Notes under the pieces: model-generated | Told to the model about the DNA's origin: nothing | Database searches by the model: none | What the model saw: only the letters and a program-made list of their open reading frames with translations | Program-made: the position numbers and the translations under genes | Virus record (IMG/VR): IMGVR_UViG_3300029841_000001 | Location: 64,001-128,000 of that record | DNA: 64,000 nt | DNA from: a virus | Taxonomy: Duplodnaviria > Heunggongvirae > Uroviricota > Caudoviricetes | Reading direction: 5' to 3' (one strand) | Shown here: positions 232-20,359 of the stretch, one piece after another | How the letters are laid out: the number at the start of each line of letters is the position of its first letter | How positions within the stretch are numbered: position 1 is the first letter of the stretch

Positions 232-459
232 TTATACCTCCATGAAAGTCGAATTATATTGTTCTCCAATAATAATTGGTCTATAAATAACATCCTCATT
301 TTTTAAAAGTTCTAATGCTTCATCACACGCTCTCCAAGCATCACTTAATTTTTTATATTGCCCCAAATAAATACTACCTTTAGGAGCATAATTAATGTAG
401 CTTGTATACATATGTAATTCCTTTCCTAAAATGTCTATTTCACTTATCATACGAAACAT
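232..459 (-). CDS. Hypothetical protein
   Basis: ORF in the co-oriented array. Confidence 0.65.
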   Translation of the reverse strand: MFRMISEIDILGKELHMYTSYINYAPKGSIYLGQYKKLSDAWRACDEALELLKNEDVIYRPIIIGEQYNSTFMEV

Positions 460-634
460 GACAATGCTCTATACACCATTTCCACCAAGGCATATTTTTC
501 ATACCACCAGCTCTTTCCCAATCTGCTTTAATAACTTCTCTAGTTTTTTCTGAAAAACAATTATAAATAAAACATGAACATTCCATTAATGCTATCTCTG
601 GATTTTCAAAACCAGTTGTGTCTAAATTAATCAT
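440..634 (-). CDS. Hypothetical protein
   Basis: AGGAGG RBS upstream. Confidence 0.7.
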   Translation of the reverse strand: MINLDTTGFENPEIALMECSCFIYNCFSEKTREVIKADWERAGGMKNMPWWKWCIEHCHVSYDK

Positions 635-666
635 ATTCTCTTATCCTCCTTTTTATATTCATAAAA

Positions 667-1074
667 TCAGTCTTTCAACTGGTTATTCTTTTCATCACAA
701 TACTTTTTTGCATCTTCATGCGTAGCAAATAAATGTTTTTCATCTGCTGTTTCTTTTATTGCTACATTGCACCAGTTATCAAATCCAATTAGTTTATAAA
801 CAACTATCGGATCATTATCTTTATTAATTGTCAATTTAATCGAAGAAACTTTCCACTCAATACGATGAACGTTATATTTAATAGCTGTTCTTTTTTCCGT
901 TCTAATTCTACGTCCACTACATTTTGGACACTTACATTTTTCACCTTTATAAATAAAGAATCCATTTCCATCACAAAATGTACATGGTATAATATCATTT
1001 ACTTCCTGTTTATTTCTATATACAAGGCATACATCTTGTCCTATATCATATTTTGTTTTAATATGTAAATCCAT
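667..1074 (-). CDS. Zn-finger protein (CxxCxGxG repeats)
   Basis: CTFCDGNG and CPKCSG motifs. Confidence 0.7.
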   Translation of the reverse strand: MDLHIKTKYDIGQDVCLVYRNKQEVNDIIPCTFCDGNGFFIYKGEKCKCPKCSGRRIRTEKRTAIKYNVHRIEWKVSSIKLTINKDNDPIVVYKLIGFDNWCNVAIKETADEKHLFATHEDAKKYCDEKNNQLKD

Positions 1075-1309
1075 AATAAATATACCTCTATTCTTTCTTC
1101 TTTAAAATTTTCGTCACTTCGCCAACACTTATACAGAATCTTTTAGCAACATCTTTCTTATCACCACTTCTATTGTAAGCATTCATAACATCTTCATATG
1201 TAAATTCTTTCTCAACTGGCTCATTCATAAAGCTATCCATCATCTATATACCTCCAAAATCTTTCTACAATATACTTCTCTGTTTGTTTCATTAATTACT
1301 CCTATTCTA

Positions 1310-2353
1310 TCATGATATACGTATGGATTCCACCTTAGATAATAAATCTTTTAATGTATCAGCATCTACTTCTGCATTAGTTTCTCTACCAGATTTAATC
1401 GCTTCTAACAGAATATCTCTTAAATCATTAGTTTTCATAGCAATTACAGGAGCATTATCAATAGCAGATTTTACACCGTTATCTATATCTTCAATTCTCT
1501 GTGCAACACTATTAAAACATTTTCTTGCCTTCTCTCGCATAACACCGATATATCGTTTCGTTGTCTCAGTGTCCGTATGTCCATATACAGTTTGTAAAAT
1601 ACCCAAACAATCAGGATCATACTTATTAATCTCATGTGCAATATAGCCAAAACTCTTTCTTAAAGAATGAGTGCTCACATTCTCAATGCCGAGAGAATCC
1701 GCTGCTTTTTTAAACTGGTGTCTGTATGAAGCTGCTTGTTTTTTTACTTCCTTATCATATTCTTCTTTGTTTTTTGCATAAGTCTTTGATTCTCTAGGAA
1801 AAATATCTTCATTCAGATGTTCTAATGGGTTAATATTCTCCATAGAACAATACTCATCAATATATTTCCATGTGACATTAGAGACAGAAATATCAATTGT
1901 TTTATCTGTCTTCTGTTCAATCAAAGTATTTAATACTTCTTTTCTTCTTCCATTCTCATAGTAAAAGTCATTCCATTTTAATGATAAAATGTCTCCGATA
2001 CGTCTTGCTAACAGGAATCCAAACATCGTAATTAAAAATTCCTGGTGATAATGATTATTTCTAAAGTAGTCAATCATATTCTTAATATCTTCTTCTCTAT
2101 AGAATGGATCAACTTCTGTTTTCCCACGTTTTTTAGTTTTCATTGTAATTTCAGATACAAGATATTCGCCATCATCAGACATATATTTAATCCATATCTG
2201 TGACTTATTATTAGAATATTTCAATGTATCAATATCATCTTCATCTGTTTCAATCGGAAGATATTTGTTTTCTTCTAATACAGAATCAATTTCTTCTAAT
2301 GATAAAACATGATCCAGAAGTCTTTCTCTAATATCATCAATCATCTTTGCCAT
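1310..2353 (-). CDS. Tyrosine recombinase/integrase family protein
   Basis: Catalytic set R (ARRIGD), K (EQKT), HSLR, H (YGH), Y (KRYI) is intact. Confidence 0.92.
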   Translation of the reverse strand: MAKMIDDIRERLLDHVLSLEEIDSVLEENKYLPIETDEDDIDTLKYSNNKSQIWIKYMSDDGEYLVSEITMKTKKRGKTEVDPFYREEDIKNMIDYFRNNHYHQEFLITMFGFLLARRIGDILSLKWNDFYYENGRRKEVLNTLIEQKTDKTIDISVSNVTWKYIDEYCSMENINPLEHLNEDIFPRESKTYAKNKEEYDKEVKKQAASYRHQFKKAADSLGIENVSTHSLRKSFGYIAHEINKYDPDCLGILQTVYGHTDTETTKRYIGVMREKARKCFNSVAQRIEDIDNGVKSAIDNAPVIAMKTNDLRDILLEAIKSGRETNAEVDADTLKDLLSKVESIRIS

Positions 2354-2355
2354 AA

Positions 2356-2541
2356 CTAATACCTCTCATCCTTCCTTATCTTTTCTAATTTCTCTTTCTT
2401 CTTATTCAAATGTCGCACTCTTGCTCTTGGTTTATATTTGTCACATTTCTGGCAATAATGCCAATGGTTTGCATATCTACCTTTCTTACATTCACCCATA
2501 CAAATATAATACAGACAAGGTGTTTCTCTGTCTTTCGCCAT
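2356..2541 (-). CDS. Small Cys/His-rich basic protein coupled to the recombinase
   Basis: Cx4Cx3C...HxxxCxxC pattern; stop lies 2 nt before the recombinase start. Confidence 0.75.
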   Translation of the reverse strand: MAKDRETPCLYYICMGECKKGRYANHWHYCQKCDKYKPRARVRHLNKKKEKLEKIRKDERY

Positions 2542-2634
2542 ATTGGTTTCCTCCGTATATTTTTTATAACTGCTTCTTTTGTCAAGAGAAGCATAGAACT
2601 TGCTTAACGCATATACGGCGTTAATAATATGTAT

Positions 2635-3543
2635 TTAGCTTACCATTGGTGTCTGTCCTACCATTTCAGTAGGTGATTTATCGTATGATTCACATAATGC
2701 AGCGAATGTTTTAAGAACTTTACTCCATTCATCTTCCTTAATCCATTGCAGATATGGAGATTTACCACGTTGTTTTAATGCAATTCCATATTTGTACTGC
2801 AAGTTTCTATATAATTCATTCCACATATCAGGGTAACGATTATGTGTTACAAGAGCAAGTTTTCTAATTCCTGCATTAAGAACACTTCTGTCTTTCCATT
2901 CAAGAATATCACCCGCGAGGGCTTTATTATCTTTCTCCAACTTGTCAATATGCCGATTCTTAAATGCAATTAGTTTTGACGTTGCTACCGCCGCTGCACT
3001 TGGATCACCACTTGATATTGCCATCCCAACTTCTAACATAAGTTTCTGTTCTTCTGTAATATCAATAATTTTGGTTTTAGATAAAGTCTTTTCTTCTATA
3101 TTAAGAAGTTGTGTTCTGACTTCTTTTGCCACATCGGATTGTTGTAATAACATTCCGATTCTCAAAACAGCTCTTCTACTAAACGCTTTAAGCCCACGAT
3201 TATTAATTGTGATGGTTTGTCCATCCTCAAAAGTATATGTAACGGAAGTTTGTTTCTTTTCAACGGAAGTAATATTTAGTTTACTTCCGTCATAATAGCT
3301 TCTTGGGAACATCTCAACACCATCTAAATCAATTTCACCTTTATTATTAGAATATAAAATCTTTATATATTCTGGTGTTACTTCATAATAATCTGCAACT
3401 TGATCAATAGACATCATATCCGTTCCAGGTAAAAGCAATAATTGTTTTACCTTTTCAAGAACTTCATAATGATTAACACACTTATCTCTAAGTGTTCTAT
3501 CGTTACATAGTGGGCTTTCATCTTGATTTTTAATTCTATTCAT
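2635..3543 (-). CDS. Antirepressor-like phage DNA-binding protein
   Basis: QVADYYEV HTH-like segment and 'RAVLRIGMLLQQSDVAKEVR' motif typical of phage antirepressor-like proteins. Confidence 0.6.
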   Translation of the reverse strand: MNRIKNQDESPLCNDRTLRDKCVNHYEVLEKVKQLLLLPGTDMMSIDQVADYYEVTPEYIKILYSNNKGEIDLDGVEMFPRSYYDGSKLNITSVEKKQTSVTYTFEDGQTITINNRGLKAFSRRAVLRIGMLLQQSDVAKEVRTQLLNIEEKTLSKTKIIDITEEQKLMLEVGMAISSGDPSAAAVATSKLIAFKNRHIDKLEKDNKALAGDILEWKDRSVLNAGIRKLALVTHNRYPDMWNELYRNLQYKYGIALKQRGKSPYLQWIKEDEWSKVLKTFAALCESYDKSPTEMVGQTPMVS

Positions 3544-3686
3544 ATTAAAATCCTTTCGTATGTAAAATTGTTAATAGTTACTTCTAAACAGTATTTCTCC
3601 ATTTAGTTTGTAAATATTTGCAATCACATAAGCAATCATTTCAATATTTAGTTATCAAGGTACAATTTATATATGGAAAATATGAC

Positions 3687-3715
3687 TTGAATTAGTCCAG
3701 GATATAAGTTATAAT
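3687..3715 (+). promoter_or_regulatory. sigma-A promoter, antisense to the early operon
   Basis: TTGAAT-17 bp-TATAAT. Confidence 0.6.
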
Positions 3716-3756
3716 ACTTTCTGGACTTATGCTAATTGCATATTTCCTATTCTATA

Positions 3757-3801
3757 TAAAAGAGTGAGTTTCGGTTTGGTCGCTGAGGACTCACTCTTTT
3801 T
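3757..3801. terminator. Bidirectional intrinsic terminator
   Basis: AAAAGAGTGAGT...ACTCACTCTTTT stem with A and T tracts on either side. Confidence 0.7.
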
Positions 3802-4198
3802 ATTGATTTTTCTTCCAATATCCATACATACAACAATCACCAGAATCCCACGTATCGTAGAAACTTCCGTCAATGGATGCAACAACATGATTTGCCACAC
3901 TTAAAAAATATGTACCTTCTTTATGTTCTTTTGTAAAACTTTCTACCGTAGGACGTTTAGATCCTTTTTTATTACTAATCCCCACATATTCAAATCCATG
4001 TTCCTCTAAATATCTCTTATAACAGGGCTTACTATTTGGATTACATTGAATATCTCTTGCAATCGGGAGTAATTCATCAAATACTTCCAACCAGGTCTTA
4101 TTCATTATTCTACACAAAGCACGAATAACACAATCACTCTGATCGTCTTTTTTGTCTTTATTATTTGGCTGAAAATATTTATAATGTTTACTTGTCAT
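3800..4198 (-). CDS. Conserved phage protein (DCVIRAL...HVV...YDTWDS)
   Basis: Motif pattern of a recurrent phage family, possibly a papain-like Cys-His fold. Confidence 0.7.
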   Translation of the reverse strand: MTSKHYKYFQPNNKDKKDDQSDCVIRALCRIMNKTWLEVFDELLPIARDIQCNPNSKPCYKRYLEEHGFEYVGISNKKGSKRPTVESFTKEHKEGTYFLSVANHVVASIDGSFYDTWDSGDCCMYGYWKKNQ

Positions 4199-4214
4199 TT
4201 TTGCTTCACTTCCT

Positions 4215-4559
4215 TTATCTTAATGCTTCTACAAATTTTCGTAACCATTTTTCTGATACATAACCAGATAATACTTCATGCAAACATCCCATAATAGCAT
4301 CAACTTCATCTTTAATAAATAAATCTGTTTTCTTGATACTATCTAACTTCTGTTCAATCAATCCAGAAAAATCAACTTCAACAATGTTATCAATATCAAT
4401 ATTAGTTACAATTACCAACTTTGACAAATCTTCCATTGTCAAAGACCATTCATCATCTGGTACATCATTATAGAAATATGCTTCCATATCATAAGTTTTA
4501 TCATAAGCTGTAATCTCTGCTCCATCTTCTCTTGATTTTAAATATTCATATAGTGTCAT
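4215..4559 (-). CDS. Hypothetical acidic protein
   Basis: ORF with RBS, downstream of a strong promoter. Confidence 0.75.
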   Translation of the reverse strand: MTLYEYLKSREDGAEITAYDKTYDMEAYFYNDVPDDEWSLTMEDLSKLVIVTNIDIDNIVEVDFSGLIEQKLDSIKKTDLFIKDEVDAIMGCLHEVLSGYVSEKWLRKFVEALR

Positions 4560-4591
4560 TTCTTATATCCCCTTTCTCTTAACTTGATTAT

Positions 4592-4620
4592 ATTATAGCA
4601 TTAGTACCATTGTATTTCAA
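4592..4620 (-). promoter_or_regulatory. sigma-A promoter overlapped by TAGTACCAWTGT direct repeats
   Basis: Minus strand TTGAAA-17 bp-TATAAT with extended -10 TG; repeats at about 4602, 4628 and 4670. Confidence 0.75.
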
Positions 4621-4694
4621 TAGGCATTAGTACCAATGTTTGTAATTGTTATTTGTGATATTTATACAATAGTACCATTGTATTTCTTGTATAA

Positions 4695-4724
4695 AAATAA
4701 GACACCTATTAAGATGTCTTATTT
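4695..4724. terminator. Intrinsic terminator
   Basis: AAATAAGACA...TGTCTTATTT hairpin. Confidence 0.6.
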
Positions 4725-4910
4725 CTAATTGTCTCTTTCCATTTTTTCTTTAATAGCTTGCCTTATGAAACCTGCTTTTGTATATCCTTTTTCTTCACAA
4801 TAAGTCGCAAGAGTAGCAGCTTCTTCTTTTGGCATAGACAATTTAACTTGTGCATATGCCTTTTTAAAATAACGCTCATTGGCTTCTTTTTTTGCTTTTG
4901 ATACTGTTAT
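4725..4910 (-). CDS. Ribbon-helix-helix (Arc/CopG-like) regulator, 61 aa, probable ATA start; absent from ORF track
   Basis: GGAGG RBS then ATA-TVSKAKKEANERYFKKAYAQVKLSMPKEEAATLATYCEEKGYTKAGFIRQAIKEKMERDN. Confidence 0.7.
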   Translation of the reverse strand: MTVSKAKKEANERYFKKAYAQVKLSMPKEEAATLATYCEEKGYTKAGFIRQAIKEKMERDN

Positions 4911-5091
4911 TTTAACCGCCTCCCATCATATCTCTTATTATTATAAAGGAAATCTACTCACGTAGCAAGTAATTATTTTATCAGCTTGACTGTATATTAC
5001 CGCAATTATACGGTCATTTCCGCTTTTTACCTCCGAAAAAGTCCTATAAGTACATATAACTTTTTCCATGAAATGTCTGTTTTAACTTTAA

Positions 5092-5625
5092 CTATTGTTT
5101 TTTCTTTTGTATTAACATATCACCAAATTCGTAGATAAAACGCCCATACCCAATTTTTTGTATAATGTTACGCAACTCAGACAAATTTTTGCAATCAATA
5201 CTATTAAACAAATTCATTACATTATCCTGGAATTTCACTCTTTTTAATTTATAATTCATTAATAAGATCATTCCATTATATGAAATAAAATCTGGATCAA
5301 TTATTTCATAATCTACTCGTTTAACAGTATTAGGTTTGTCAAAAATCCAAATTTCTTTTGTTGTGTTTACATCAGGAACATATTCGTGTATTTCATCAGA
5401 AATTAAAAAACTTTTTGAAACCATATAATATGCATGAATGATTAATGGCAATTTTAATTTCTGCATGTTGTGTAAAATTCTATATGATCCTGGAACATCT
5501 TCCAAGGAATTTCGTATAGAATTTGTAACACATATTCTTTTGATAGAATTGTTTTCGTTTATAATTTGATGCATCGGAATTTGTGGATAAAAGTTATCCA
5601 CTACATCAAATGATACATGAACCAT
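5092..5625 (-). CDS. Hypothetical protein (HVSF...RICV motif, possibly ADP-ribosyltransferase-like fold)
   Basis: ORF; the fold guess is weak. Confidence 0.6.
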   Translation of the reverse strand: MVHVSFDVVDNFYPQIPMHQIINENNSIKRICVTNSIRNSLEDVPGSYRILHNMQKLKLPLIIHAYYMVSKSFLISDEIHEYVPDVNTTKEIWIFDKPNTVKRVDYEIIDPDFISYNGMILLMNYKLKRVKFQDNVMNLFNSIDCKNLSELRNIIQKIGYGRFIYEFGDMLIQKKKQ

Positions 5626-5751
5626 ATTAATTATTCTCTTTTCATATTCGTATTAGAATCCCAATGAAAACAATTTTTGTTTTTAATTGTTACAAATGTT
5701 CTTTTTGAAATCTACAATGATCACTATTGAAGAATGATGCCTTTTTCTGTT

Positions 5752-6093
5752 TTAACTTCTCATCAAGTCATCTAATGAATCAAAAAGTTTCAAATCATCA
5801 TCTAAATTTTCATGAACCCCATGATGATAAGCAAATCTTCCAATCCATTCAATAACTTCTTTTCTGTTTTGTAAATAATCTTCTTTTCGCATCTTTCTAA
5901 TGTCATGTAACCGTTCCTGTATCACTGATCCGTTTGTGGTAAAAAGCTCTCCATGTAATTTATCATCAGAAATATTTAATAAATGACATGGATGCCAGGA
6001 CTTATCAATCCTAAATTCATACATATAATTATAATTTCCGTTAGCTTGTTCAACAGTCATTCTTATCACCTTCCATACAATTTTTGCATACAA
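5752..6093 (-). CDS. Hypothetical protein
   Basis: ORF; true start probably MTVEQ. Confidence 0.65.
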   Translation of the reverse strand: MYAKIVWKVIRMTVEQANGNYNYMYEFRIDKSWHPCHLLNISDDKLHGELFTTNGSVIQERLHDIRKMRKEDYLQNRKEVIEWIGRFAYHHGVHENLDDDLKLFDSLDDLMRS

Positions 6094-6294
6094 AAGATAA
6101 TTCTACATCCTCACAATCATTAATTTTTTATTATATCACAAATTTCATTTTCTTTTATTCCACGTTCAATAATACTGATTTCCATATCAGTAATATCATC
6201 AAACCAATCAAATCCTTGTTTTCCATCTTTAATATATGTTAATAAGATATTTTTATCTCCCATCTTTACACACCCTCATGAAAACAATCTTTCA

Positions 6295-6708
6295 TCACAT
6301 ATCTTCTAAAGTAAACCCATAATAATCCCGAAGGGTTCTTTTTTCATTAAATCCTGTAAATGGCAAACTAATACCTCTTTCCTTCAATAATTTACAAAAT
6401 TCATAATCACAAGTTTCAGGATATAGTCTTTTATCTGGCACATAATCATAATTCGATTTTATCACCAACTCTCTCATATTTTTTGGTTTTGTATAATCTC
6501 CGCTATAATCGTTACCATACATGACTGTATGAATTTCATCATTTTTTAAATATACATGAAATGTTTCTCTTGTACAAGTATAGCCATAAAGTAATGTCCT
6601 ATCTTTGGTATTTAACAAATCTTTCGCATTTATCAATTCAGCGATCTTATTTACATTTTTAAGAAATTTTAATTCCCTTAATGTCATATTGCCATCTCCA
6701 TTCTTCAC
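6295..6708 (-). CDS. Hypothetical protein (single-gene unit between repeats)
   Basis: Bounded by repeats at 6279 and 6711. Confidence 0.75.
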   Translation of the reverse strand: MKNGDGNMTLRELKFLKNVNKIAELINAKDLLNTKDRTLLYGYTCTRETFHVYLKNDEIHTVMYGNDYSGDYTKPKNMRELVIKSNYDYVPDKRLYPETCDYEFCKLLKERGISLPFTGFNEKRTLRDYYGFTLEDM

Positions 6709-6723
6709 CTTGAAAGCAATTTT

Positions 6724-7119
6724 TCAACTATTCATTTTTCCTCTTTTAATATCAAGCAATTCTTTTAGGATAACTTTTTTAATGTCAAATATTCCGTTCT
6801 CCCAAACATCCATCTCTCCGTATTCATTAAATCCAGATGTGCGGATTTCTCCATTATCCATGCAGCTAATACATTTCAAAATATCACAGTGTCCAGTTCT
6901 TGCTCCCCATAACCTAACAGAATCTAATACAATTTCAGAATATGTAAATATAACCAAATCTTCATTTGCTTTAGAGTATATATCACATAATTCCAAAATC
7001 CTTTCAGATAGTTTGTAAGGATGCAATGTATCTTGCTCTGGAAAATACTTTGCATGTTCATAATTTCCTGCAAGATATAAATTTCCATTTCGTTGACCTG
7101 TAACAATGATTATTTCCAT
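6724..7119 (-). CDS. Truncated ABC-ATPase C-terminal/DUF3696-like protein
   Basis: FPEQDTLHP, VIFTYSE and WENGIFD resemble the PE.HLHP, IIETHSE and WP.GFFD motifs; no Walker A. Confidence 0.55.
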   Translation of the reverse strand: MEIIIVTGQRNGNLYLAGNYEHAKYFPEQDTLHPYKLSERILELCDIYSKANEDLVIFTYSEIVLDSVRLWGARTGHCDILKCISCMDNGEIRTSGFNEYGEMDVWENGIFDIKKVILKELLDIKRGKMNS

Positions 7120-7145
7120 TATATCACCTCTTTAAAACCGTCATT

Positions 7146-7568
7146 TTACAATAATAAAACCGCAATTTCCGCTACGGATAACTCATTTCTTGTTATTTGT
7201 AATGCCTGCAAATCAGTAAGATTGTATTTGTCTCTAAATGGAATTGCTAAATTACATATTGCTTTTTTACTTACTTTATTACTTCTACATAATTTTTGAA
7301 AGTTGCTTTGCAAATTGCTTTGCAAATTTCCGACTTCTCTCAATAAATTTTCCATAGCATTATCTTGTGCAAAAATTCCATTCAGTTGCAATAACAATTC
7401 AAGCTGCTCAATTTCCGTTTTCAGCTTTTTCATTACCAGCAAATCATTAATTGTATTATCCTCATATGTGGGAGAATCCATGTTTTGTATATTTATTTTG
7501 AAGTATTCCTGTTTCTTAGATAAATCTTCTTTCAAAGAATTTATTCGTGCAACAATCCATTCATTCAT
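7146..7568 (-). CDS. Hypothetical coiled-coil protein
   Basis: Bounded by repeats at 7133 and 7581. Confidence 0.7.
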   Translation of the reverse strand: MNEWIVARINSLKEDLSKKQEYFKINIQNMDSPTYEDNTINDLLVMKKLKTEIEQLELLLQLNGIFAQDNAMENLLREVGNLQSNLQSNFQKLCRSNKVSKKAICNLAIPFRDKYNLTDLQALQITRNELSVAEIAVLLL

Positions 7569-7585
7569 ATTTTCGCTCCATAAAA

Positions 7586-8413
7586 CTATTCTTTCATCTT
7601 TCTATTCTTGTTTAATTTCTCCCATCTTTCAGGATATGTTTCTTTAAACCATTTTAAAAAATCTCCAAACATTGCGTCCTCTGCATCTTTACGTGCTTTT
7701 GCAGCATCTTCAATATTTTTATATTCTCCTAAAAAATACTTCTTTTTTTGAAATTCAATAAGAGCTACCCATTTTTGATTTCGACTATTTTGATATACGC
7801 CTTTAATTCCAGATTTATTATTTTTAGGTAACTTATTATTTGATATTGATATTACAGACGTATCGTTCAAATAAAATTGTTTTTGAACATTATTTGCTTT
7901 TTTCATAATTATCTTATTAAATTCATGCCTTAAACATCCACAAGATTGTTTAGAAGGAAATGCTGAAGCAGACACACTAAATTCTTTTCCACAAGCAGGA
8001 CATTTACATAACCATAAATAACTAAGACTTTTATTCTTTTTCTCTAATCGTTTTATTGCTATGCATCCATATTTATTTACTTTCCCCGCCAAATCAAGAG
8101 ATTTTGACTTATTCATTTGTTCTTGAGCTTTATGTCCACAGGAAACCGTAGCCCCTGATTGTAAATCATCAAATCTTATTGTACGTATATTTCCACATGA
8201 ACATTTACATATAGAATATATTTTTCCTGCTTTTCTATAAGATTTTTCAATGATTAATTCCCCAAATTTTTGATTATTAAATTCATCGGTATAGATAGGA
8301 GTATTCCTGCATTCTTCTGAACAAAATCTTGCATTACATTTTCCATCAAACACTTTCCCACAAACAACACATATTTTCTTAGACATTTTGATCCATTTCC
8401 TTTTCTTGAACAA
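7586..8413 (-). CDS. AP2-domain DNA-binding protein with repeated CxCxCG...SCG modules
   Basis: NKSGIKGVY...KWVALI...YFLG...DAAKAR AP2 signature; related to HNH-AP2 homing endonucleases. Confidence 0.82.
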   Translation of the reverse strand: MFKKRKWIKMSKKICVVCGKVFDGKCNARFCSEECRNTPIYTDEFNNQKFGELIIEKSYRKAGKIYSICKCSCGNIRTIRFDDLQSGATVSCGHKAQEQMNKSKSLDLAGKVNKYGCIAIKRLEKKNKSLSYLWLCKCPACGKEFSVSASAFPSKQSCGCLRHEFNKIIMKKANNVQKQFYLNDTSVISISNNKLPKNNKSGIKGVYQNSRNQKWVALIEFQKKKYFLGEYKNIEDAAKARKDAEDAMFGDFLKWFKETYPERWEKLNKNRKMKE

Positions 8414-8630: not shown

Positions 8631-8862
8631 AATGGGACTATTAATTATAAATTTTTATTATATAATTCTACCACAAACTTATCAATCTGTCACCATATGA
8701 AAGAATCCTTTCAACTATACAGCTACATTTATTTTATGATTATTTTCCATCCATAAAATAGATTCATATTCTTTTTTCTTCATTGCACAAGCATTGTTTC
8801 CGCTCATTATAGTAACATAATCAATTCCGTTTACCTTAAATGTTCCAACAACTTTCATCATC

Positions 8863-10005
8863 TTATTCTTCCTCCATCATCTGCTTTACCGCTATACGAA
8901 AAATAGACAGTAAAGATTTACTATCATTGATGATATTTTTCTTCGATGCAGATTTACTTCCATACTTATTTATGTATCTTGTTTCTCGATTCTTCCAAGA
9001 AATTTTCTTAATTGTATCCATTCTTGCGTACACAAGTTTGTATGTAACACAACCTGCGTTACTCTTATCATTATATTTCTTAATCAGGGGTATAATGATT
9101 TTATCTGTCAAACATTCATTTTCTTTCGCTTCTGATTCAGAAATAAGATCATATAATACAGCTTCAAAAATTGATCTGTAAATGTCTTTTCCATATATAA
9201 TATCTAATGTTGGCGCACTGTTCCCATTCTGAGTAACATAATCTTTATGCTCTTGTTCCCAAACTATTCCATAATTCTTTGTCATGTATTTGTAGAGATA
9301 TTTCAGACAATCGTTTCTTTTTGTAAATCTTCCAACTGATATTAGCTGATCCATCATAGAGTATAGATTCTGTTTCCATTTAATCAGATCATCTTCTACA
9401 ACTTCTTTTAAGTTATTCTTTTGTGGAATACTTTTAGTATTCTTTAGTGCATTTATTTCTGATTTAAGATCAAGAATAATATTAGCAAGCTTTCCCATAT
9501 CAGAATATTGTTTATCAATCTTATCATTGATCACTTGAAAGCTTTCTGTGTAATCTTTCATTCCAGGAAGTTCCAACTGTAAAATATTTGATTGCGGAAC
9601 CATTGCAGATTCTTGTTTCTTCAAAAATGCGGAAGCAAGAACATCTTTTGCTTTTAACTGATATGTTATAAGTTTTTCCACAAGTTCAGGATTATTTTCT
9701 TTCATCTTCGGAGTAATGGAAATCTTTGCTAACCATAATGGCAAATAGTCTAATTCTATACATAAAACTTCTTGATTCCCACCATTTGTAGGGAGGACGA
9801 AATTTCGTCCACCTTTAGAAAGCACTAAATCTTCCCTTAACCGCTTACGTTCATTCTTAATCTGACCTTCACTAAGACCAATTCCATCACAAATCCACTT
9901 TACACCAACCCAAATTATATTATTAATATCTTGTGCAGCTTTTATAGTCGCACCATTAAATTCTATATCTCTTACTGTTAATCCGTTCATATGTATTTCC
10001 TCCAT
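8863..10005 (-). CDS. Phage antirepressor with P22_AR N-terminal domain
   Basis: IEFNG...IWVGVKWICDGIG...QEVLCIELDYLPLWLAKI. Confidence 0.85.
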   Translation of the reverse strand: MEEIHMNGLTVRDIEFNGATIKAAQDINNIIWVGVKWICDGIGLSEGQIKNERKRLREDLVLSKGGRNFVLPTNGGNQEVLCIELDYLPLWLAKISITPKMKENNPELVEKLITYQLKAKDVLASAFLKKQESAMVPQSNILQLELPGMKDYTESFQVINDKIDKQYSDMGKLANIILDLKSEINALKNTKSIPQKNNLKEVVEDDLIKWKQNLYSMMDQLISVGRFTKRNDCLKYLYKYMTKNYGIVWEQEHKDYVTQNGNSAPTLDIIYGKDIYRSIFEAVLYDLISESEAKENECLTDKIIIPLIKKYNDKSNAGCVTYKLVYARMDTIKKISWKNRETRYINKYGSKSASKKNIINDSKSLLSIFRIAVKQMMEEE

Positions 10006-10082
10006 GTATAAATTATTTCACTTGACTACTTATATTTTTCTCTGACCACCTCCACATTTTCATCAAGCTTGAAAACTGGTTT

Positions 10083-10361
10083 TCATCTACTATTTTCAAC
10101 CATATCAAAAATTTCATTCCAATCAGAATAATTTTTCAATTTTTCCTGCGGAACTAATAATTCATATTCTGATTCAATTTCTTCTCGTGATCCATATCCA
10201 TTAGAACTAGGAACGCTGCCAATTTCATAGGCATTATGTCTTTCCATTTGTCTAAAAATAACAGTGCTTTTATCTACCAGTTTTCCCATATGTGTAGCAT
10301 AACTATCAATTTGAATAATTGAATTATCTTTTTTATTTACATATACATCTCCAATTTTCAT
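10083..10361 (-). CDS. Hypothetical protein
   Basis: Stop codon lies within the repeat at 10070. Confidence 0.7.
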   Translation of the reverse strand: MKIGDVYVNKKDNSIIQIDSYATHMGKLVDKSTVIFRQMERHNAYEIGSVPSSNGYGSREEIESEYELLVPQEKLKNYSDWNEIFDMVENSR

Positions 10362-10368: not shown

Positions 10369-10923
10369 CTACTCCTTAATTACAACATTATTTCCAAATA
10401 CTTTTCTTATTTCTTCCATCGTTACATATCGTACAGGTTCTATATTTCCATCTACATTTATGGCTACTGGATAATATGGATAATCATCACAGTCATTATC
10501 ATCAACCCATCCACCACCAAAATGAGCAACAATTTCTTTGATAATTTCTACACTTGATCCATAATAACTAAGAGATATAAATGTAGTTTCTGATCTTACC
10601 ATATCATCTAATCCATACTCTGCATAATACTCAGAGTTTTCGTAGCTATTAATATTTTCATAATTGTAGAATAAAGCTCTTTCTTCTCCGTTGTATTTAA
10701 AAATAATAAACCCATAATCTGTATACCAATTATAGCGATCATCACAGTTATCATTGATTTTAAAATTCCAATTACACATTGAAATAGGTTTGTAGATATG
10801 CTTACTAACTCCATTCTTTGCATTTATATCCCATTTTTGTCGAATAAAATTAACTATATTTTCAGGTCTAATGTGACCTTTAATTCTTCCATATGTATCA
10901 CATCCCATATCGTTTCCCTCCAT
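10369..10923 (-). CDS. Hypothetical protein
   Basis: ORF; likely start MGCDTYG after GGAGG. Confidence 0.75.
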   Translation of the reverse strand: MEGNDMGCDTYGRIKGHIRPENIVNFIRQKWDINAKNGVSKHIYKPISMCNWNFKINDNCDDRYNWYTDYGFIIFKYNGEERALFYNYENINSYENSEYYAEYGLDDMVRSETTFISLSYYGSSVEIIKEIVAHFGGGWVDDNDCDDYPYYPVAINVDGNIEPVRYVTMEEIRKVFGNNVVIKE

Positions 10924-11086
10924 GAAATTCTCGTTCTATTATATTATACTAACAACTGTCTTTTTCACATATTTTTCATTGATTAATTGCATAGAAATTC
11001 TCCTAAGAAAAATAACCCACACTACGAATCAAATTAGCACATAGACAGCCACACAACCTAAAATATAAGCCATTATTCTACGCCTC

Positions 11087-12275: not shown

Positions 12276-13533
12276 TCATTCTTTCTTCACCTCTTCCATG
12301 AGATATGCCAATCCTTTACTATAGTGACGATTGAACCAATCATATACAGTATTCTTGTTAGTTCCTTTTGGAAATGCATACCACGCAGCTTTAAGATTTC
12401 CGTTGCGGTCAACAGGAATACTCTGAAATTCCTTCCATAATACTTCTACATTTTTGTCAATCGTATCCTGTAATGTTGGTTCTGGCATTTTCGGTTCTTC
12501 GTTTTCTGTTACGATATTTGTATTTTTCATATGTATTCCATGTTCCTTTCTACAAATTAATTGGATTTCCATCTGTATCATATTTAATTGGTTCTATATG
12601 CGCTACATATCCAATGCCTGATTTCTTGTCATAAATTTCCATTGTGCCACCTACTGCAAACTCAAAAGAGTATCTTTCATCATTACTTTCGATCAAATCA
12701 ATTAAATAATTTACTAATCCATTGATATTTCTTGCTTCTTCTTTCTGTTTTTCAATTCTATTCATCGTTTTCTTCTTTCTTAATATAATTTATGAAAAGT
12801 ATCAATAATTTCCTGGTGCAATCGTTTTCTATCTTCAAGTTCTTTTCCTTTGTATAACTCCATTCCGTGATCTGCACTTGTAACATAATGTTCTCCATCA
12901 TTACGAATATACACATCTATTTCTTCAATTCTTTTATTGTCTAATCTCATTTTCATATAAATATGCGTTCCATGTGTATGTTCTTCTAATTTAATAGCCA
13001 TAATTCGCACCTCTTTAATATTCTTTACACAAATCCATAATCGTATCTACTAAATTCAATGGTGAATCAATTCCATATCCGCTTAACATATCGAATGATT
13101 CTCCGCTAAACGTATATACCAGATCACAATAATGATTCCACTCATTGCCATCTTGTGCGAAGGTAATTTCTAAAGAAATATTATCTGTTAAGTCAAATTC
13201 CCATATCTGTTCTTTAAATGTCTGTGGCTTATTTCCTTTACCGTTCCAAAATGTAGGGTTCATTTCTTTAAAGAAATCATTCACAATATTTTCTGCTTTT
13301 TCTCTTGTCATAATATTTCCCTCGCTGAAATCATCAATTCATCAAAGTCCTAAAATCATCAATGTGAATGCTATTATCAACATTATAAATGATAAGCAAA
13401 ATAGACATCCTCTAATCATACGCTGTTTTATTTCCTTTTTTGGTAAACAAAGCCCTATGTAAAAAATCACAAAACTAATTATTGCACTTGAAATACTTCT
13501 CATATCATGTCCTTTCCTTATCTGATAATACAT
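12276..13533 (-). CDS. Cluster of five small hypothetical genes (12276-12581, 12550-12765, 12780-13010, 13015-13311, and membrane peptide 13342-13533)
   Basis: Tightly packed co-oriented ORFs with RBSs. Confidence 0.65.
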
Positions 13534-13610: not shown

Positions 13611-13823
13611 TTATACTCTCTTATTCCACGCATCAATTAATCCATGTGGTGACTGATCGTACCCTCTATCAATCCCAGCCATACAGTTACAACAATAGAT
13701 TTTCCATCTTTTACCAGATGTATGTTCATATTCTTCTAAAACAATATCCTCTGATTCTCCACAAAACGGACAATGTTTTACTTTAATATCCTTATGTAAT
13801 TTGTTTGCTTTAATGATATTCAT
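13611..13823 (-). CDS. Lar-family restriction alleviation protein
   Basis: CPFCG...CxxC...AWNKR signature. Confidence 0.75.
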   Translation of the reverse strand: MNIIKANKLHKDIKVKHCPFCGESEDIVLEEYEHTSGKRWKIYCCNCMAGIDRGYDQSPHGLIDAWNKRV

Positions 13824-13835: not shown

Positions 13836-16279
13836 TTAATGATACAATTTATCAATAGTATTCTGGCATTCATTCCATGATTTAACATATTTCTCATGCA
13901 ATTCAACAAATTTATCCCAGTCTAAATTCTGCATTAATGACTCATAAGCATAATATTCTCCCATTAAATATTCTATATTGAGAATATTTGTTTTATCATT
14001 TCCATCTTTGACTTTCTTTGCATATTCCAATGCCATTTCTATAACTTCTGAAATTTTGCTTTCCAGTTCTTCAATAAATTTCTCTTTATTCATAATATCT
14101 TCCACCTTTCTGAAACTCTTGTTTCAATCTAATTTACCAAGTGCAGATTCTAATGTATTAAATTTGTCCTTTATATTTACATTTTCATTGAAATTATTCA
14201 TTATGTGCAAAAATGCACTTTCTGCATCTATATATCTTCTGCTAAACCTTTCATGCGTCCCTATCTTTTTACCTGATACAGAATATTTATATGGTGAATA
14301 AATATTTTCCTCTCTTCTAAATATCAATTCCCATTCACTTCCGTAAAATGTAGTGTGTCTAAACATAACACATTGACCTTCTTTCCATGAATCACATTCT
14401 CTAATTGTATTTAATACAAATTTTTTGTTCATAATATTTTCTCCGATTTATAATACTTGTTTCATTGCTACTCACATTCTATTCTAATTCTTGAGCCAAC
14501 AAAAAACCAATTCTTAGGCTGACTTCTCCATGAATTAGGAGCAGCTTCTTTATGTTTATTGTCATATCCGATCAATAAATTATTTCTATCCAATGAATTA
14601 ATAACTCTTCCATTAATCTTATAATCATAAATAGGTAAATAATTTTTTTCACCTATTTTATGAATGATAAACCGTATTCTCCAAAAGTCATTAACATATC
14701 GTAAAAACACATTTCCTTTGCCGTATTTTGATTCTAAACGTTTATATTCTTCTATTAATTCATTCTGTTTTGGTGTAAGTTTCATATTTTCTTCCTCCAA
14801 TTCTCAATTTGAAATATCTCTTTCATTTTTACTAATTATTATATGTATTTAAAACTCTATTCTTAATTCTTCATCATAATCTATGATATACTTTTCCGCA
14901 TCTTTATAGCTATGTACTACCACTACATCTTCATATGTTTCACTGTTCTGTACAACAATATCCATTTCCGATACTTCCCAGATTTCAACATTATCTCCAC
15001 AAATTTCCTGTACAGCGTACTCTGTAACTTGATACATCGTTCCTGTACTTGCAGAAAACTCATTGATTTTCGTTTTATACTGGTACAGTGCTTTAATTGC
15101 AGCTCCTAAATTATCAAATGTTTTAATCACTTCCGGTTCTTCATCGTACTCTGTACATCCTGGAATGATATTAAAACGATCATTCCATTTAACTTCCGCT
15201 GTTCTCTTCACGATCTCAAATCTATTCATTTTATTTTCCTCCTAACACGTTTTATTTAAACGTTCAATCGGCATACGGAAACATTGTTCTGTATGCCTAT
15301 CAACATTCAAATTATGATAAGATCATCCATATAATAAAACCTATAATGATATAACCTGCTAAACAACCTAATAAGTACGCCATTGGTATCCCCTTCTTTC
15401 TCTTTCTAATAAAAATAGCCTTGTAGATATATTCTCTACAAGGCTATAAAAGATACATTTCATTCATTATTATTACGAATTTTATCAATATACCATTCTA
15501 TTGACATAGAATTTTTTTGACGTTCTGACTCATCAAAAATTTGTATAGCAATTTCATTTGCTTCTTCATGTGAATATCCTTTTCTTTCTATCATCTTTGT
15601 AGCTTTCACAACATTATTATATGTTCTTTTTTTCATATACAATCACCATCTTACATTCCAACTGACTTCCAAAATAAATCAAATGCCTTTTCCATCTCTT
15701 TTTGTCCTTCAATATTTGAATTTTTATTGTTTTTGTTTTTTATAACATTATCTATATGACTTATTTCTCCCCAATAATACTCATTTTGTAAATGATTAGG
15801 TAATTTGATCTGATCAGAATAAGATAACGGTATAATTTTGTATCCTTTATATAAATATACTTTATTTATACTGTCCCATTCAACAAATTTTCTCCATCCT
15901 CTACTCCAATTATCCATTTATTATTAACCTCTCAATTACATTCATTCTATTATACCTACGGTTTATAATCAAATTCCACTAAACCACCACTATCCATCAC
16001 AAATGCCTGTGCAGCTTCTGTATATGTCCCATCAAAATTTCCATTCTCTGTATCATAATCACTAACATGATTTCCAATTTCTTCTTCATAGTATGAAAAT
16101 ATCATTGTGATAAGATTTTCCATATCTGTTTTCGGTTCATATCCCTGTTCCCTAATCCACGCAGCCATATAATCATAATCACACCATTTTTCTTTTGGAT
16201 ATGTACTATAATCTTTTTCTTCTGTCCATCTTCCATATGTATCAACCATATTTATTTCCTCCATTCTTCCATTATGCAA
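13836..16279 (-). CDS. Cluster of small hypothetical genes (13836-14105, 14124-14432, 14468-14800, 14849-15229, 15460-15642, 15651-15917, 15956-16279)
   Basis: Co-oriented ORFs, several delimited by the 16-bp repeat. Confidence 0.65.
15412..15447 (-). terminator. Intrinsic terminator abutting the repeat at 15447
   Basis: ATAGCCTTGTAGA...TCTACAAGGCTAT stem with U-tract on the minus strand. Confidence 0.65.
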
Positions 16280-17471
16280 CTTTCATTAATTTATTAATTC
16301 TTTCTTCTACATCATTACCATTGATATCAATACTATTGATATTAACAGGTAATACCAGATAGGTAAAATCTCCATCGTATGCCATAACAGGAGATTTAGC
16401 ATTACGAAAACCCATTCTCGCAAATTCTGTATCAATTTCAGAACACAATTCTTTAATAAATAATGGATTGAATGCTATCATAAATTCTTCGGATACTGAA
16501 TTATTTGATACTGAAATTTTATCAAACGATTCTCCTTCTTCTGTAGCCATATAAGACATGATATTATTTCCAATAAATTTCATGACCATTGGTTTTTTAG
16601 AATCTTTTCCATGAAAAGAAATATTATATTCTGCTGATTCATTTAATTCTGATGTATTTACATTCACCATCATTAAATCCGATTCTGATAAAAGGATTTT
16701 ATCAACATCAAAATACATGATATCTGATTCTCTAACGATCATTTTAAAATCATTTCCAACGATATACGTTTTCTTATCTTTACTTGCAATAGATATGATA
16801 TTCTGTTCACCTTTAGACTCTTTTGCAATACAGTTCTTTAATTTAATCCAAACTTCACGATTTAAATTAACTTCTTTAACATCTGAATCAATATTAAAAG
16901 TTCCTACTTCATTTGACGGTTTACACATTCCAAGTCTATGACCATCAAGTGCTGTAATGCGATTTTTATTAGCATTAAAATTATAATAAGTCATTGCTTT
17001 ATTATATTCATCTGAATCTTTAAGATAGACATATAATTTTTCCATCATATTGAAAAATTCCAGATAGTTTGATGTAAAGAATTTTTCTTCTGGTTCTTTA
17101 ATATCTTTCATTAATGGAAAATCTTCCGCTGCATCCCACATCGAAGGAAACGTTACAATCTTCTTTCCAGTGCTAACTAATACATTTTTATGTTCTGAAT
17201 CGTATGTTATAGTGAGAAGATCGGATTTAAGTTTTATGATTTTCTTTAAGTTGTCCAGTTTAATACAGAAAGAATCGTTTCCGGTAACAAGAACATTCTT
17301 ATAAATATGCAGCTCCTCTTCTATATTGTTTGCAATAAATGCAAGCTGATCATTTTCCTGTTTAACAAGTACCGTTTCCAGAATTGAAAGTGCAGCTTTC
17401 TTCGTTACTGACTTTTCGATTTTCTTAACAACATCTTTCATTTCCTTCATAGCAATCTCAAATTTCATCAT
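16272..17471 (-). CDS. DNA polymerase III beta sliding clamp homologue
   Basis: AALSILETVL, EDFP, TALDGHRL, IAFNPLFIKE and LVLPV match DnaN motifs; 399 aa. Confidence 0.8.
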   Translation of the reverse strand: MMKFEIAMKEMKDVVKKIEKSVTKKAALSILETVLVKQENDQLAFIANNIEEELHIYKNVLVTGNDSFCIKLDNLKKIIKLKSDLLTITYDSEHKNVLVSTGKKIVTFPSMWDAAEDFPLMKDIKEPEEKFFTSNYLEFFNMMEKLYVYLKDSDEYNKAMTYYNFNANKNRITALDGHRLGMCKPSNEVGTFNIDSDVKEVNLNREVWIKLKNCIAKESKGEQNIISIASKDKKTYIVGNDFKMIVRESDIMYFDVDKILLSESDLMMVNVNTSELNESAEYNISFHGKDSKKPMVMKFIGNNIMSYMATEEGESFDKISVSNNSVSEEFMIAFNPLFIKELCSEIDTEFARMGFRNAKSPVMAYDGDFTYLVLPVNINSIDINGNDVEERINKLMKVA

Positions 17472-17585
17472 TGTTCTATCTCATTTATGTATGTGTATAT
17501 TCTTATATGTATTTATTCTCCAAAATTTTCCACTAAAAAAGGAAGTCTTATAATTGACTTCCTTCAATAGTTCTCTGTTATTCTG

Positions 17586-20359
17586 TTACATTCCATAGAA
17601 AACACTTTCTTTCCTATATCTATCTCTTTCAAAATCTTCCTGGACATAGTTCCATCTTATAGCGTTCTCTATATCGTTTAATTCGTCTATAGACAGCTTT
17701 TTGTTTCCGTTCCATATGTAAATAGGATCAACTGTAAAACGTATGTATTCAAGCGGTAAATCGTATTTTTTCGCTAGCATCTTATAGAATTGTCGTTTGT
17801 TCATACGATAATCACATCCTCTATTGATTCTCTAACTTTCTTACAAACAAGGTGAAATGCTGACGGATAATCAAACCTTGACAAGTTCACATCATTGTCA
17901 ATTCTTTTAAATGTTTCCGCTGTCATTCTGATTCCTTCTATTTCCAATTCTTTTTTAGCATCTTCAAATAAATCTTTCTTACTTTTTAGATATCCAGATA
18001 AATCCGTATACCACACAAGATTGTTAATGTTTTTGTGATGCCTAGAAACAACAGGATCGTCCCAATTAAGAACATATCTGTTATATGATTCCATTACAGA
18101 TTTAATCTGTTTTGGTGCTTCTATTCCTTTTCTTTTGCTGATTTCCGCTCTTGCATCTTCAAATTTAATCATAGTTTAAACCCTCCCTATAAAGCTGTTT
18201 CTTCCTATTATAATGCATTTTGTTTAGCTGCTCAAGCGGTACACCGAATTTATTCCGTGTACCTATCAACAGTCAAACATTGTTGTATAAACGGTCAATC
18301 GTTCTCATTATTTCCATCATTAAACCATATTCTGTAAGATTATCAACAGAAATAACAGAGGACTTTCCATTAACCGTGACAAACACACCATCTGATTCTT
18401 CTGAACACGTCACGGTTACTCTGTTTCCGTTTGTGTACGGATTTGATTCTAACATTTCATTCATCTTTGTGATCCATTCCATTCTTATTTCCTCCTGTTA
18501 AAATGTGAATTTCATTTATAATACTTTCCAACCTATACCACATTTACAAACTTTTATGCCGTATTTATCACAAAACTTTTTAACATTGCTATTTATAAAT
18601 TCTGGTTTATTTTTTAGATTTTCCAGCACGTTTACAAGTGTTCTTATATCATAAACAGATAAATTAAATCCTTTAATTTTTTCTCCATTCAATAGCTTAT
18701 TAACATCATTATTAATTTTATCATGTTGTTTCTTCGTCATGGTTTTATTTCCTCTCTATAACATATCCGAAAATTCTTTCATTTTTGGATGATGAAATCC
18801 GATTGCAACTAAAGTATAATAAATACCTTCTGAATAGGATATTGCATCCTGAAACTTCCGTAAATATGTTTCTGTTGATGCATAATCACCTTTTTTCATG
18901 CAACGCTCGTATGCTTTCCAATCGTCAATTGTGTTCCTGTGTTTTCTGATAGCTTCATCAAGAATCTTTTCCGCTTTTGTTTTCTCTGTATTTGTCATGA
19001 TTTCTATTCCTCCTGTTCTATATATTTAATAGCATCCGAAACATTTGCAAAATCTTTATAGTTTGTTTCCATATCTCCATCTTTTCCTATTTCTTCAATA
19101 GCCATTGTATAACCGTCATTAGACTGATATATGAAATAGTGTTTATTTCCTTCATAAAAAATCGTATGATTATCAATAATATGTAAATTTTCAATATCCA
19201 TTATGTTTCCCCATGAAATTGTACTTTTATCGGTTTTTATAAATAACCTATCGAAAGAATATCTTCCAGTTCTTCAACAGCTTCCCATTGTGTATTCCAT
19301 GCTCTACAGATCACACCAGAAGCCCATATAAGAAAGTATTTTCCGTCATGCTCTATGTTTCCGCATGGAAAAATATCCGTGAAATAAAGCTTTCCAGGAT
19401 ATAAAGCAGTAACTTTCTTTGCTAGTCTTTCCATTTTCTTTCTCATGATAAGTATTCCTCCATATCAATTCTAAACTCTGACCATAACAGAATCGAAAAA
19501 TCTGGATCAGCTTTGCAGTATTCCAGTAAAAACTTTTCATTGCTGCATGGGGCAAGATCGAAATGTAATGATTCTCTGATAGAATCATCCATATATGTTG
19601 AGATCGTTTCCATTAACTTACTATCAATAAGTCTTTTCATGTTCTTCCTCTCACTTTCTGCGATATACTTCAACTGGTTTCCGTTCTGATGCTTCTAATC
19701 TATCAATCATGCGATAGATTGCTTTATTTAATTCTCCTTTTCTAATTCTCATATCAGAAAAGCTTTCCTGTGATGCTGTCACGGTATAGCCGTTTCCGTT
19801 CTCATTAATATGTATATTAATTCTCATATAGCTGCACCTCCTAACATCCTTTAGAAAGCCAGTCCAGGAGCATCCAAACCGGCAATCCTCCAAAAATCAG
19901 GAAGAAAGCGGTATACTTTGCAACTGCTTCCAGACCGCCCGTGATAGTATCTTTGATTGCTTTCTTATAACGATCTTTCATAGTTTCTTTCCATTCTGTT
20001 TCCGTCATGAGTATGTTTTTCATGTTCTTTTCCTCCCTGTTTAATATGCTAAATCATTATGTAAGTGTGCTAAATGCCATTATAAGCACTATAAAAGGCA
20101 CGACTGTTAATTACTGCGGTCATGCCCTATTTAGTGATTATAAGGTTGTTTTATCTTCTGTGTTTTTCCCGTATGGGTTTATAAAATCGCTCTGAATATC
20201 ATTGTTTTTTATGTAGTTATATATATTTAGAAGCATGATAAAATCACCAGGACTAATTGTTGTTATGTTTCCGTTTCCATGTGTGACAGTTACGCTTTTA
20301 TCGTGTGTTTTCTGTTCAAGTGTTACTTTTCCACAGTTATTTACGTCAAATGTGATCAT
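17586..20359 (-). CDS. Cluster of ~11 small hypothetical early genes
   Basis: 60-123 aa co-oriented ORFs with RBSs and overlapping stop/start codons. Confidence 0.65.

Follow-up and report, generated by a model that had tools for sequence, protein, structure and literature searches.

What is a short palindrome doing at the ends of so many unrelated genes along one arm of a phage genome? The question is raised by a 64,000-nucleotide stretch of DNA (hereafter the window), comprising bases 64001-128000 of the 172,353-bp Caudoviricetes record IMGVR_UViG_3300029841_000001, in which an earlier note had read copies of the sequence TRAAA-N6-TTTYA as the hallmark of an integron-like gene-cassette array. 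Our analysis shows that these copies belong to a real, family-wide set of two-fold symmetric sites located at gene ends across the early arm, and that along the early arm these palindromes, each recognisable individually, follow one another in a fixed order while the genes between them are exchangeable.

The window contains 19 matches to TRAAA-N6-TTTYA, of which 14 lie at 427-19229 and five at 43115-59788, compared with 3.89 ± 1.97 (mean ± standard deviation) and at most nine in 100 dinucleotide-preserving shuffles. The 13 strict copies reported in the earlier note are all present where it placed them, and a fourteenth, at 427-442, had been overlooked. A scan of the whole genome for enrichment at junctions, which the note had recommended, found 45 strict copies, 33 of them in the minus-strand early arm (genome 6283-83214), and the array thus extends far beyond the limits of 243-19229 first given to it. 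Thirty-one of the 33 are non-coding in a genome of which only 11% is non-coding, and in 11 of the 31 the TGA or TAA of the site is itself the stop codon, in agreement with the proposal that the sites mark the junction between a stop codon and the next ribosome-binding site. Of the 12 strict copies elsewhere in the genome, 10 are intragenic. The genes of the window from position 1 to about 27000 lie on the minus strand, and it is on this strand, not in the orientation originally presented, that the junctions read from stop codon to site and then, after 0-3 bases, to Shine-Dalgarno sequence and ATG. With gene calls from a simple script for open reading frames and ribosome-binding sites, and protein families defined by blastp at 35% identity and 60% cover, strict sites are found at 29-38 of the 168-194 co-directional early junctions in six genomes (17-22%). 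Late-arm junctions carry a strict copy in one of 52 cases in this genome and in 0-1 per 51-65 in five relatives, as expected from the report that none had been seen in the structural arm. Conservation reaches one base further on each side, with A before and T after the site, and all 31 non-coding early-arm centres in this genome differ from one another.

The sites are shared by SPbeta, a model phage with fifty years of study behind it, and by a number of its relatives. Scoring strict matches against the control count of the same scan, we found 36 versus 3 in SPbeta (NC_001884.1), nearly all of the form TAAAA-N6-TTTTA, 39 versus 6 in Mammaliicoccus phage phi6255 (36 of them perfect TAAAA-N6-TTTTA copies), 30 versus 2 in phi3Ts and 42 versus 10 in Geobacillus E3. 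Closer to the phage of the window, seven IMG/VR relatives have 11-17 strict copies per 15-21 kb, five whole relatives have 40-56 versus 8-18, and five further contigs have 15-25 versus 0. Enrichment is weak in Lysinibacillus LC76P1 (8 versus 1) and PhiSepi-HH3 (22 versus 12) and moderate in phiCD211 (31 versus 12), and there is no clear excess in TR-TP1 (6 versus 6), Enterocloster CB473P1 (4 versus 7) or Lactococcus 949 (12 versus 6). Placement is similar where it was scored: 24 of 29 matches in the SPbeta early arm and 29 of 39 in phi6255 are non-coding, the site gives the stop codon in 10 cases in phi6255, and in SPbeta its TAA is the annotated stop of nine genes (yoqG, yoqS, yoqY, yorT, mtbP, yorZ, yosC, yosF and yosR). 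The variable base of the arm differs by group, being G in the gut clade and A in SPbeta. The SPbeta arms are also longer, at about 11 bp in a 28-bp site, since T at positions -6 and -4 mirrors A at +19 and +21 across 36 sites; this outer symmetry is present at 81% and 69% after symmetrising, and A at +21 reaches 94% on the deposited strand.

The most conserved part of a site is its centre. At 14 orthologous junction pairs compared between subgroups (10 distinct sites), the centre was identical at 84 of 84 positions, whereas third codon positions of the adjacent genes were identical at 236 of 280 and the six bases downstream of the site at 51 of 84. When the upstream gene was shared, with one pair taken per gene family, the centre was retained at 6/6 positions in 34 of 44 sites, 5/6 in four and 4/6 in one, and was unrelated in five, with a third-codon identity of 0.69 in the same set; when the downstream gene was shared, 24 of 38 sites had a 6/6 centre. 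The arms vary more often than the centres. Thirty-eight distinct centres recur across subgroups where neither flanking gene family is held in common. Identity around these 38 rises from 0.30 at positions -36 to -13 to 0.91 and 0.97 in the left and right arms, and falls to 0.35 at +13 to +36; the pairs were chosen for identical centres, and a few assigned to this class do have similar flanks, although mean flank identity is still at background. Altogether 115 distinct centres were catalogued, 66 of them shared by two or more genomes and 11 common to all six, and their order is collinear in six genome pairs (28/28, 26/26, 26/26, 32/32, 36/36 and 36/36). In both G001 and G002 one block has moved, such that sites 29-31, 50, 63, 26 and 27 stand ahead of the block 32, 23, 24. 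SPbeta and phi3Ts have 23 centres in common, five of which have unrelated genes on both flanks.

Several properties bear on whether the sites are recognized as DNA or RNA. TGAAA/TTTCA is the most over-represented gapped palindrome in this phage, with 15 copies at a spacing of 6 (0.66 expected) and none at 5 or 7. In the SPbeta early arm the leading gapped palindrome is TAAAA at a spacing of 6, with 27 copies (1.37 expected), and the other spacings between 0 and 12 have only 0-2 copies each. The R and Y positions of the two arms vary independently: in 71 distinct sites the combinations G/C, G/T, A/C and A/T occur 41, 16, 10 and 4 times, matching the 40.9, 16.1, 10.1 and 3.9 predicted by independence, and orthologous copies change one arm only (nine from G/C to G/T, eight from G/C to A/C). 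Constraint is mirror-symmetric within the centre as well, where A is rare at position 1 and T at position 6 (7 of 71 sites each). Predicted RNA hairpins range from -0.1 to -4.9 kcal/mol, and of 14 sites five are essentially unfolded and one folds differently. The strict spacing, independently varying arms and weak hairpins argue for recognition of double-stranded DNA by a symmetric protein rather than for an RNA element. From this we conclude that a reader with two-fold symmetry recognizes the sites as double-stranded DNA, and the symmetry of the sites suggests that this reader is a protein dimer.

The explanation we favor, although tentatively, is that the palindromes are dispersed docking sites for a dimeric protein that acts on the host-transcribed arm. 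Such a protein would bind the sites on double-stranded DNA and, once bound, would block, pause or insulate transcription by host polymerase between early genes; its binding, its dimeric state and its effect on transcription are modelled on the stoperators of cluster A and the dyad repeats of cluster O mycobacteriophages. By analogy with SPbeta, as described in the accessible part of the source (PMC5467207), the site-free arm would be transcribed by a phage polymerase and the site-bearing arm by that of the host. Window positions 33496-36363 (plus strand) encode a 956-residue protein without a Pfam hit that is distantly homologous to YonO, the RNA polymerase that transcribes the late genes of SPbeta (22% identity over 593 residues; pairwise E value 4e-6), and its D-x-D-x-D stretch aligns with the D-N-D-G-D of YonO. 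Since the sites are the only sequence common to unrelated neighboring genes, some swaps and deletions would also use them as short-homology joints, in the way that PeSLs serve T4-type phages.

Several observations weigh against docking by a regulator. No phage DNA-binding protein tracks the site in the compared genomes. An HU-like protein that is conserved throughout the six gut genomes and shares 52% identity with SPbeta YonN was considered and set aside, since it is present in TR-TP1, which shows no enrichment, and absent from phi6255, which has the motif. Phylogenetic profiles returned only replication proteins (YorH, YorI and YorK-like) found in G000, SPbeta and phi6255 and not in TR-TP1, and these candidates are meaningless because the genomes are too few and too closely linked by descent. 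Most sites are not near promoters, and a promoter function for the site itself was rejected: no -10-like element is conserved at a constant distance from it, and shuffled sequence contains more promoter-like sites. The known master repressor of SPbeta uses another, non-palindromic box, so that a second silencing system would have no known need. Finally, a plain operator does not predict that the centres should be the best conserved part of the site; this would be predicted by a mechanism that needs matching centres, or by affinities fine-tuned through DNA shape.

A requirement for matching centres would point to recombination. The early arms are highly mosaic among relatives. Junctions with a site (up to one mismatch) were synteny-variable in 248 of 257 cases versus 567 of 712 without one, and in 117 of 122 versus 80 of 98 when only gaps of 20-45 nt were considered; these pooled counts repeat shared ancestry, and p values computed per genome lie between 0.0004 and 0.11. 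In close genome pairs, several replacements run from the end of one site to the start of the next. Three single-gene inserts are bracketed by two site copies. In two of these inserts the copies have nearly identical centres; in the third the right copy is degenerate, and the corresponding single-copy site has its left arm and centre in common with one flanking copy and its right arm with the other. Contig variants from four DNA runs break at 5068, 5089|6274, 6295|7579, 18501 and 18520, and others break at site-free junctions or in genes (1313|2356, 4192|4554, 8961|9661 and 13840|14471). One of these, a 28-kb contig of run X4, has the integrase-family gene int1 (window 1313-2356) replaced gene-for-gene by 824 unrelated bases without boundary palindromes, and also carries an in-frame 699-bp deletion (8961-9661) inside an Ant-like gene (8866-9990). 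The prediction that breakpoints in relatives would fall at the sites was therefore borne out in part: many do abut a site, but of 87 distinct gene gains or losses, 53 occurred at site-free junctions, and breakpoints fall at such junctions about as frequently as their proportion among all junctions would lead one to expect. In the longer form of the remaining 34, the site was on the downstream side only in 15, on the upstream side only in 10, on both sides in five and on neither in four.

Proximity to a site does not by itself locate the crossover. Short gaps force viable breakpoints to lie near sites, and unrelated upstream genes end at varying offsets from the same site, with both stops inside the arm in only two of 41 cases; breakpoints at site edges are thus no proof of crossing-over within sites. 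Homology between SPbeta and phi3Ts ends within 10 nt of a site in eight of 48 cases, eleven times the 1.5% expected at random, but roughly a quarter of SPbeta early junctions are estimated to carry a site, so that homology ends are not enriched over junctions in general. The site-free late arm is also mosaic, with 208 broken and 95 conserved junctions. Laboratory SPbeta x phi3Ts hybrids crossed over in long tracts of 98-99.7% identity and, as products of long homology, are uninformative on the sites. G001 lacks the gene that separates the 7133-type from the 6711-type site and retains both sites, which stand 6 bp apart; excision between two sites would leave one hybrid site, and the double site therefore counts against excision.

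Against this background, four other explanations can be weighed with the docking model. We rank second, while thinking it unlikely, the proposal that the sites are recombination linkers at which phages exchange cassettes at same-numbered sites with gene order kept, either through a site-specific enzyme that needs matching 6-bp centres or through annealing on 16-18 bp of identity. It would account for the 38 centres that recur between unrelated genes, the collinearity of shared sites, the persistence of centres beyond that of synonymous positions, the greater synteny variability of site junctions and the five SPbeta/phi3Ts centres, among 23 in common, whose flanks are unrelated. It also draws on the replacements between two sites, the inserts bracketed by near-identical copies, the hybrid-like site and the contig breaks at 5068, 5089|6274, 6295|7579, 18501 and 18520, and the SPbeta arms of about 11 bp are the size of those in recombinase core sites. 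In a more specific version, which we regard as doubtful, the centres are addresses, and an enzyme or a phage annealing protein recombines only sites with the same centre. If true, co-infecting SPbeta-like phages would swap cassettes in register, and the accessory (anti-defence) arm would possess a built-in, order-preserving shuffling grid. Against linkers of either kind stand the 53 of 87 indels that are site-free and the 25 of the other 34 that keep one copy only, the lack of enrichment of SPbeta/phi3Ts homology ends over junctions, the mosaicism of the site-free late arm, gaps too short for breakpoints to lie elsewhere, the varying upstream stop offsets (both inside the arm in only 2/41), the use of long homology by laboratory hybrids and the lack of a conserved recombinase; exchangeability alone would, moreover, exert only weak selection for centres. 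The original proposal of an integron-like system, with a phage tyrosine recombinase that takes up promoterless cassettes and reshuffles them at these sites, now appears very unlikely. The recombinase-like 5-6-5 layout was confirmed, with arms of 5-6 bp and a strict 6-bp centre, the window encodes two integrase-family proteins, Int1 and Int2, that keep the H-x-x-R, H and Y motifs when aligned with XerD, and five inserts are bracketed by site copies. Nevertheless, at a threshold of at least 35% identity each is limited to two of the six genomes (Int1 to G000 and G003, Int2 to G000 and G001), and the other genomes have integrase relatives of 21-27% identity although the site is invariant; Int1 is swapped for unrelated DNA in the X4 contig, most cassettes have no site, the sites are 16-18 bp and not attC-like, and G001 retains both sites around a lost gene. 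Int1 was also compared with SPbeta YopP and YopR and rejected as their relative (YopP, E value 0.088 over 65 residues; YopR, no match).

The two remaining explanations differ in what would read the site. A Firmicutes nucleoid protein or global regulator might bind A-tract/T-tract palindromes that the phages have accumulated, which would explain why phages of Bacillus, Mammaliicoccus and Geobacillus and those of the gut clade all carry the site, and why no phage DNA-binding protein tracks it. The accessible text of one study describes clostridial CcpA as binding inverted TGTAAA/TTTACA cores with variable spacers (PMC5263246); these have another core, and their variable spacing is unlike the fixed spacing here, so the site is not a CcpA site of that type. 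The variable arm base is group-specific, G in the gut clade and A in SPbeta, and the related phages TR-TP1 and CB473P1 lack the site. We consider a host factor quite improbable. Least probable of all is a hairpin in the polycistronic early mRNA that serves in processing, stability or translational coupling, which the earlier note had listed as an alternative. The position of the site between stop codon and Shine-Dalgarno sequence would suit such an element, and six of 14 copies form more stable folds than their shuffled controls (z -2 to -4). However, a stable stem with compensating changes of the RNA hairpin or REP-like type was not seen: there is no covariation, A-C combinations occur at chance frequency, the loop size is strictly fixed, folding energies are weak or zero, and the SPbeta form would have A-U pairs only. 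A homodimer on RNA would need equal half-sites, which the palindrome does not provide in RNA. The Rfam search returned no matching family. In SPbeta, the site lies between an upstream intrinsic terminator and a promoter at aimR and yorE, and some sites are in divergent promoter regions. Docking of a symmetric protein therefore ranks first and recombination linkers second, with the host factor, integron and RNA element lower, and the repressor-type operator that the earlier note had offered as an alternative fits the data better than its integron.

Comparison with known systems helps to place the sites. Cluster A mycobacteriophages carry tens of repressor sites, the stoperators, in short intra-operon gaps, and a roadblock model has been put forward for them. 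Stoperators are asymmetric and oriented with transcription, whereas the sites described here are palindromic with mirror-symmetric constraints and do not qualify as stoperators. The core sites of tyrosine recombinases consist of inverted arms around a 6-8 bp crossover region. Our sites resemble these in having inverted arms and a 6-bp centre, and differ from tyrosine-recombinase and attC systems in lacking a conserved recombinase and an attC-type fold and in leaving most cassettes siteless. The nearest described kind, as far as the available text allows a comparison, is the 17-bp dyad repeat of Cluster O phages, which has been read as a site for a dimeric regulator and between copies of which deletions have been reported (PMC4351075, Cresawn et al. 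2015). Both systems comprise more than 30 short inverted repeats per genome, most of them in the short gaps between genes along a single long transcription arm, the arrangement expected of a dispersed dyad operator. Cluster O repeats belong to another phage family and host, and in the portion of the source available they have a 7-3-7 layout, a mostly uniform centre and about a third of copies within genes; that portion reports no site-specific conserved centres or fixed order.

Two further systems share features with the palindrome. The PeSLs of T4-type phages, about 50 intergenic motifs among small variable early genes, are covered in part by the sources accessible to us (PMC2839356, Arbiol et al. 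2010; also Comeau et al. 2014, PMC4122927). According to these, PeSLs, like our sites, start at the upstream stop codon, end at the next ribosome-binding site and bound indels, and one copy stays where a gene is missing. They are, however, about 100 bp long and combine a strong promoter with a stable terminator hairpin, and the 16-18 bp sites have neither: only the site at 8698 precedes a strong promoter and only that at 15447 precedes a terminator. Within the SPbeta family, the SPBRE/SroF (MrpR, YopR) operator likewise recurs at scattered positions of the early arm, and a phage regulator binds it. The accessible parts of the sources place SPBRE, bound by MrpR/SroF, at ten promoters (PMC10516654) and describe a 26-bp, monomer-bound phi3T box (bioRxiv 10.1101/2025.11.27.690993), which makes this operator a non-palindromic, monomer-bound element of 15-26 bp in about ten promoter copies. 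Identity of the palindrome with it was rejected. A different shared motif, the SPBRE box, lies upstream of aimR, yorE, yopV, yonT, yonX, yopM and yonP; at aimR and yorE it stands beside the palindrome, and its ATACA-N7-TGTAT core scores separately.

No paper naming the palindrome was found in a literature search that took in the accessible text of PMC8270828 and bioRxiv 10.1101/2021.11.22.469490, and the 1999 genome paper may describe it. What is new here is the occurrence of such sites in the SPbeta-like family, including its model phage, their overlap with stop codons and, above all, their conserved, site-specific centres in fixed order. A chain of 30-55 sites with conserved centres and order implies a conserved recognition system on the early arm, in phages of Bacillus, staphylococcal relatives and gut clostridia and on an arm that houses anti-defence and accessory genes. 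Transcription control and cassette exchange are both testable by standard SPbeta genetics, and the sites would provide landmarks by which the hypervariable arms of these large phages could be aligned and annotated.

The individual sites of the window illustrate these features, with centres given on the coding (minus) strand. Nearest the left end, a degenerate site with one arm mismatch (243-258) falls within the last codons of the upstream open reading frame and is followed by a ribosome-binding site and ATG. The strict site at 427-442 (TAGACA) supplies the stop codon with its TGA, and the upstream stop codon falls within the centre of the site at 662-677 (GACTGA). Variant contigs break on either side of 5069-5084 (CAGACA), at 5068 and 5089, and of 6279-6294 (GATTGT), at 6274 and 6295, and a variant contig resumes at 7579, just before 7581-7596 (GAATAG). 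Between these, the stop codon is the TGA of 6711-6726 (AATTGC) and the TAA of 7133-7148 (TGACGG). The strict site at 8698-8713 (GGATTC) is followed 12 nt on by the strongest sigma-70-like promoter of the region, and a near-identical pair of copies of the site at 10070-10085 (ACCAGT) brackets a cassette of about 180-195 bp in G003 and G005. Of the five degenerate copies in the earlier note, those at 243, 10923, 13326 and 14449 hold up with one mismatch each and that at 5665-5680 is a weak candidate with two arm mismatches; 10923-10938 (CGAGAA) and 13326-13341 (TGATGA) are strict in relatives, and the centre of 14449-14464 is CAAGTA. The TGA of 14111-14126 (CAAGAG) is a stop codon, as is that of 15447-15462 (TGTATC), directly after which comes an intrinsic terminator (15447-15415). 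The strict site at 18499-18514 (TTCACA) survives as an island in a contig that skips both neighboring genes, and 14810-14825 (GAGATA) and 19214-19229 (GTACAA) are also strict. The one-gene units noted between successive sites have the spacings claimed for them, 432, 422 and 448 bp from 6279 to 7581 and 338 and 361 bp from 14111 to 14810. In addition, five perfect TGAAA-N6-TTTCA copies lie inside late-arm genes (window 43115, 52033 and 59788; genome 128042 region), where about half a copy is expected by a rough estimate scaled from the early-arm value of 0.66.

The window also encodes a terminase, 33-37% identical to those of SPbeta-group phages, a portal, a tape measure, a clamp-like processivity factor, Ant/Rha-type proteins and the HU-like protein, and the rest of the early arm carries replication, nucleotide-metabolism, RNA-repair and anti-defence genes. 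A search of species genomes for relatives of the clamp protein and of SPbeta YorI found none. The anti-defence genes of the site-bearing arm include Gad1 (anti-Gabija, genome 4902-5810), a Lar-like restriction-alleviation protein (window 13614-13823) and an anti-restriction protein (window 21615-22166). An IS605 OrfB/TnpB (Cas12f-like) gene lies inside the early arm at genome 58329-59543 and is present, by clustering, in this genome only. A MazF/PemK-like toxin gene (genome 60140-60902) is kept in all six genomes and here faces a small opposite-strand gene of the Cro/C1 helix-turn-helix type, an arrangement that may represent a switch or a toxin-antitoxin region. At one end of the record (genome 162080-171218), a Tn7-like set comprising TniQ, TniB, a protein with a Mu-transposase C-terminal domain and a weak TnsA-like protein adjoins dUTPase and ribonucleotide reductase genes, and may be either an inserted transposon or the phage's own integration module.

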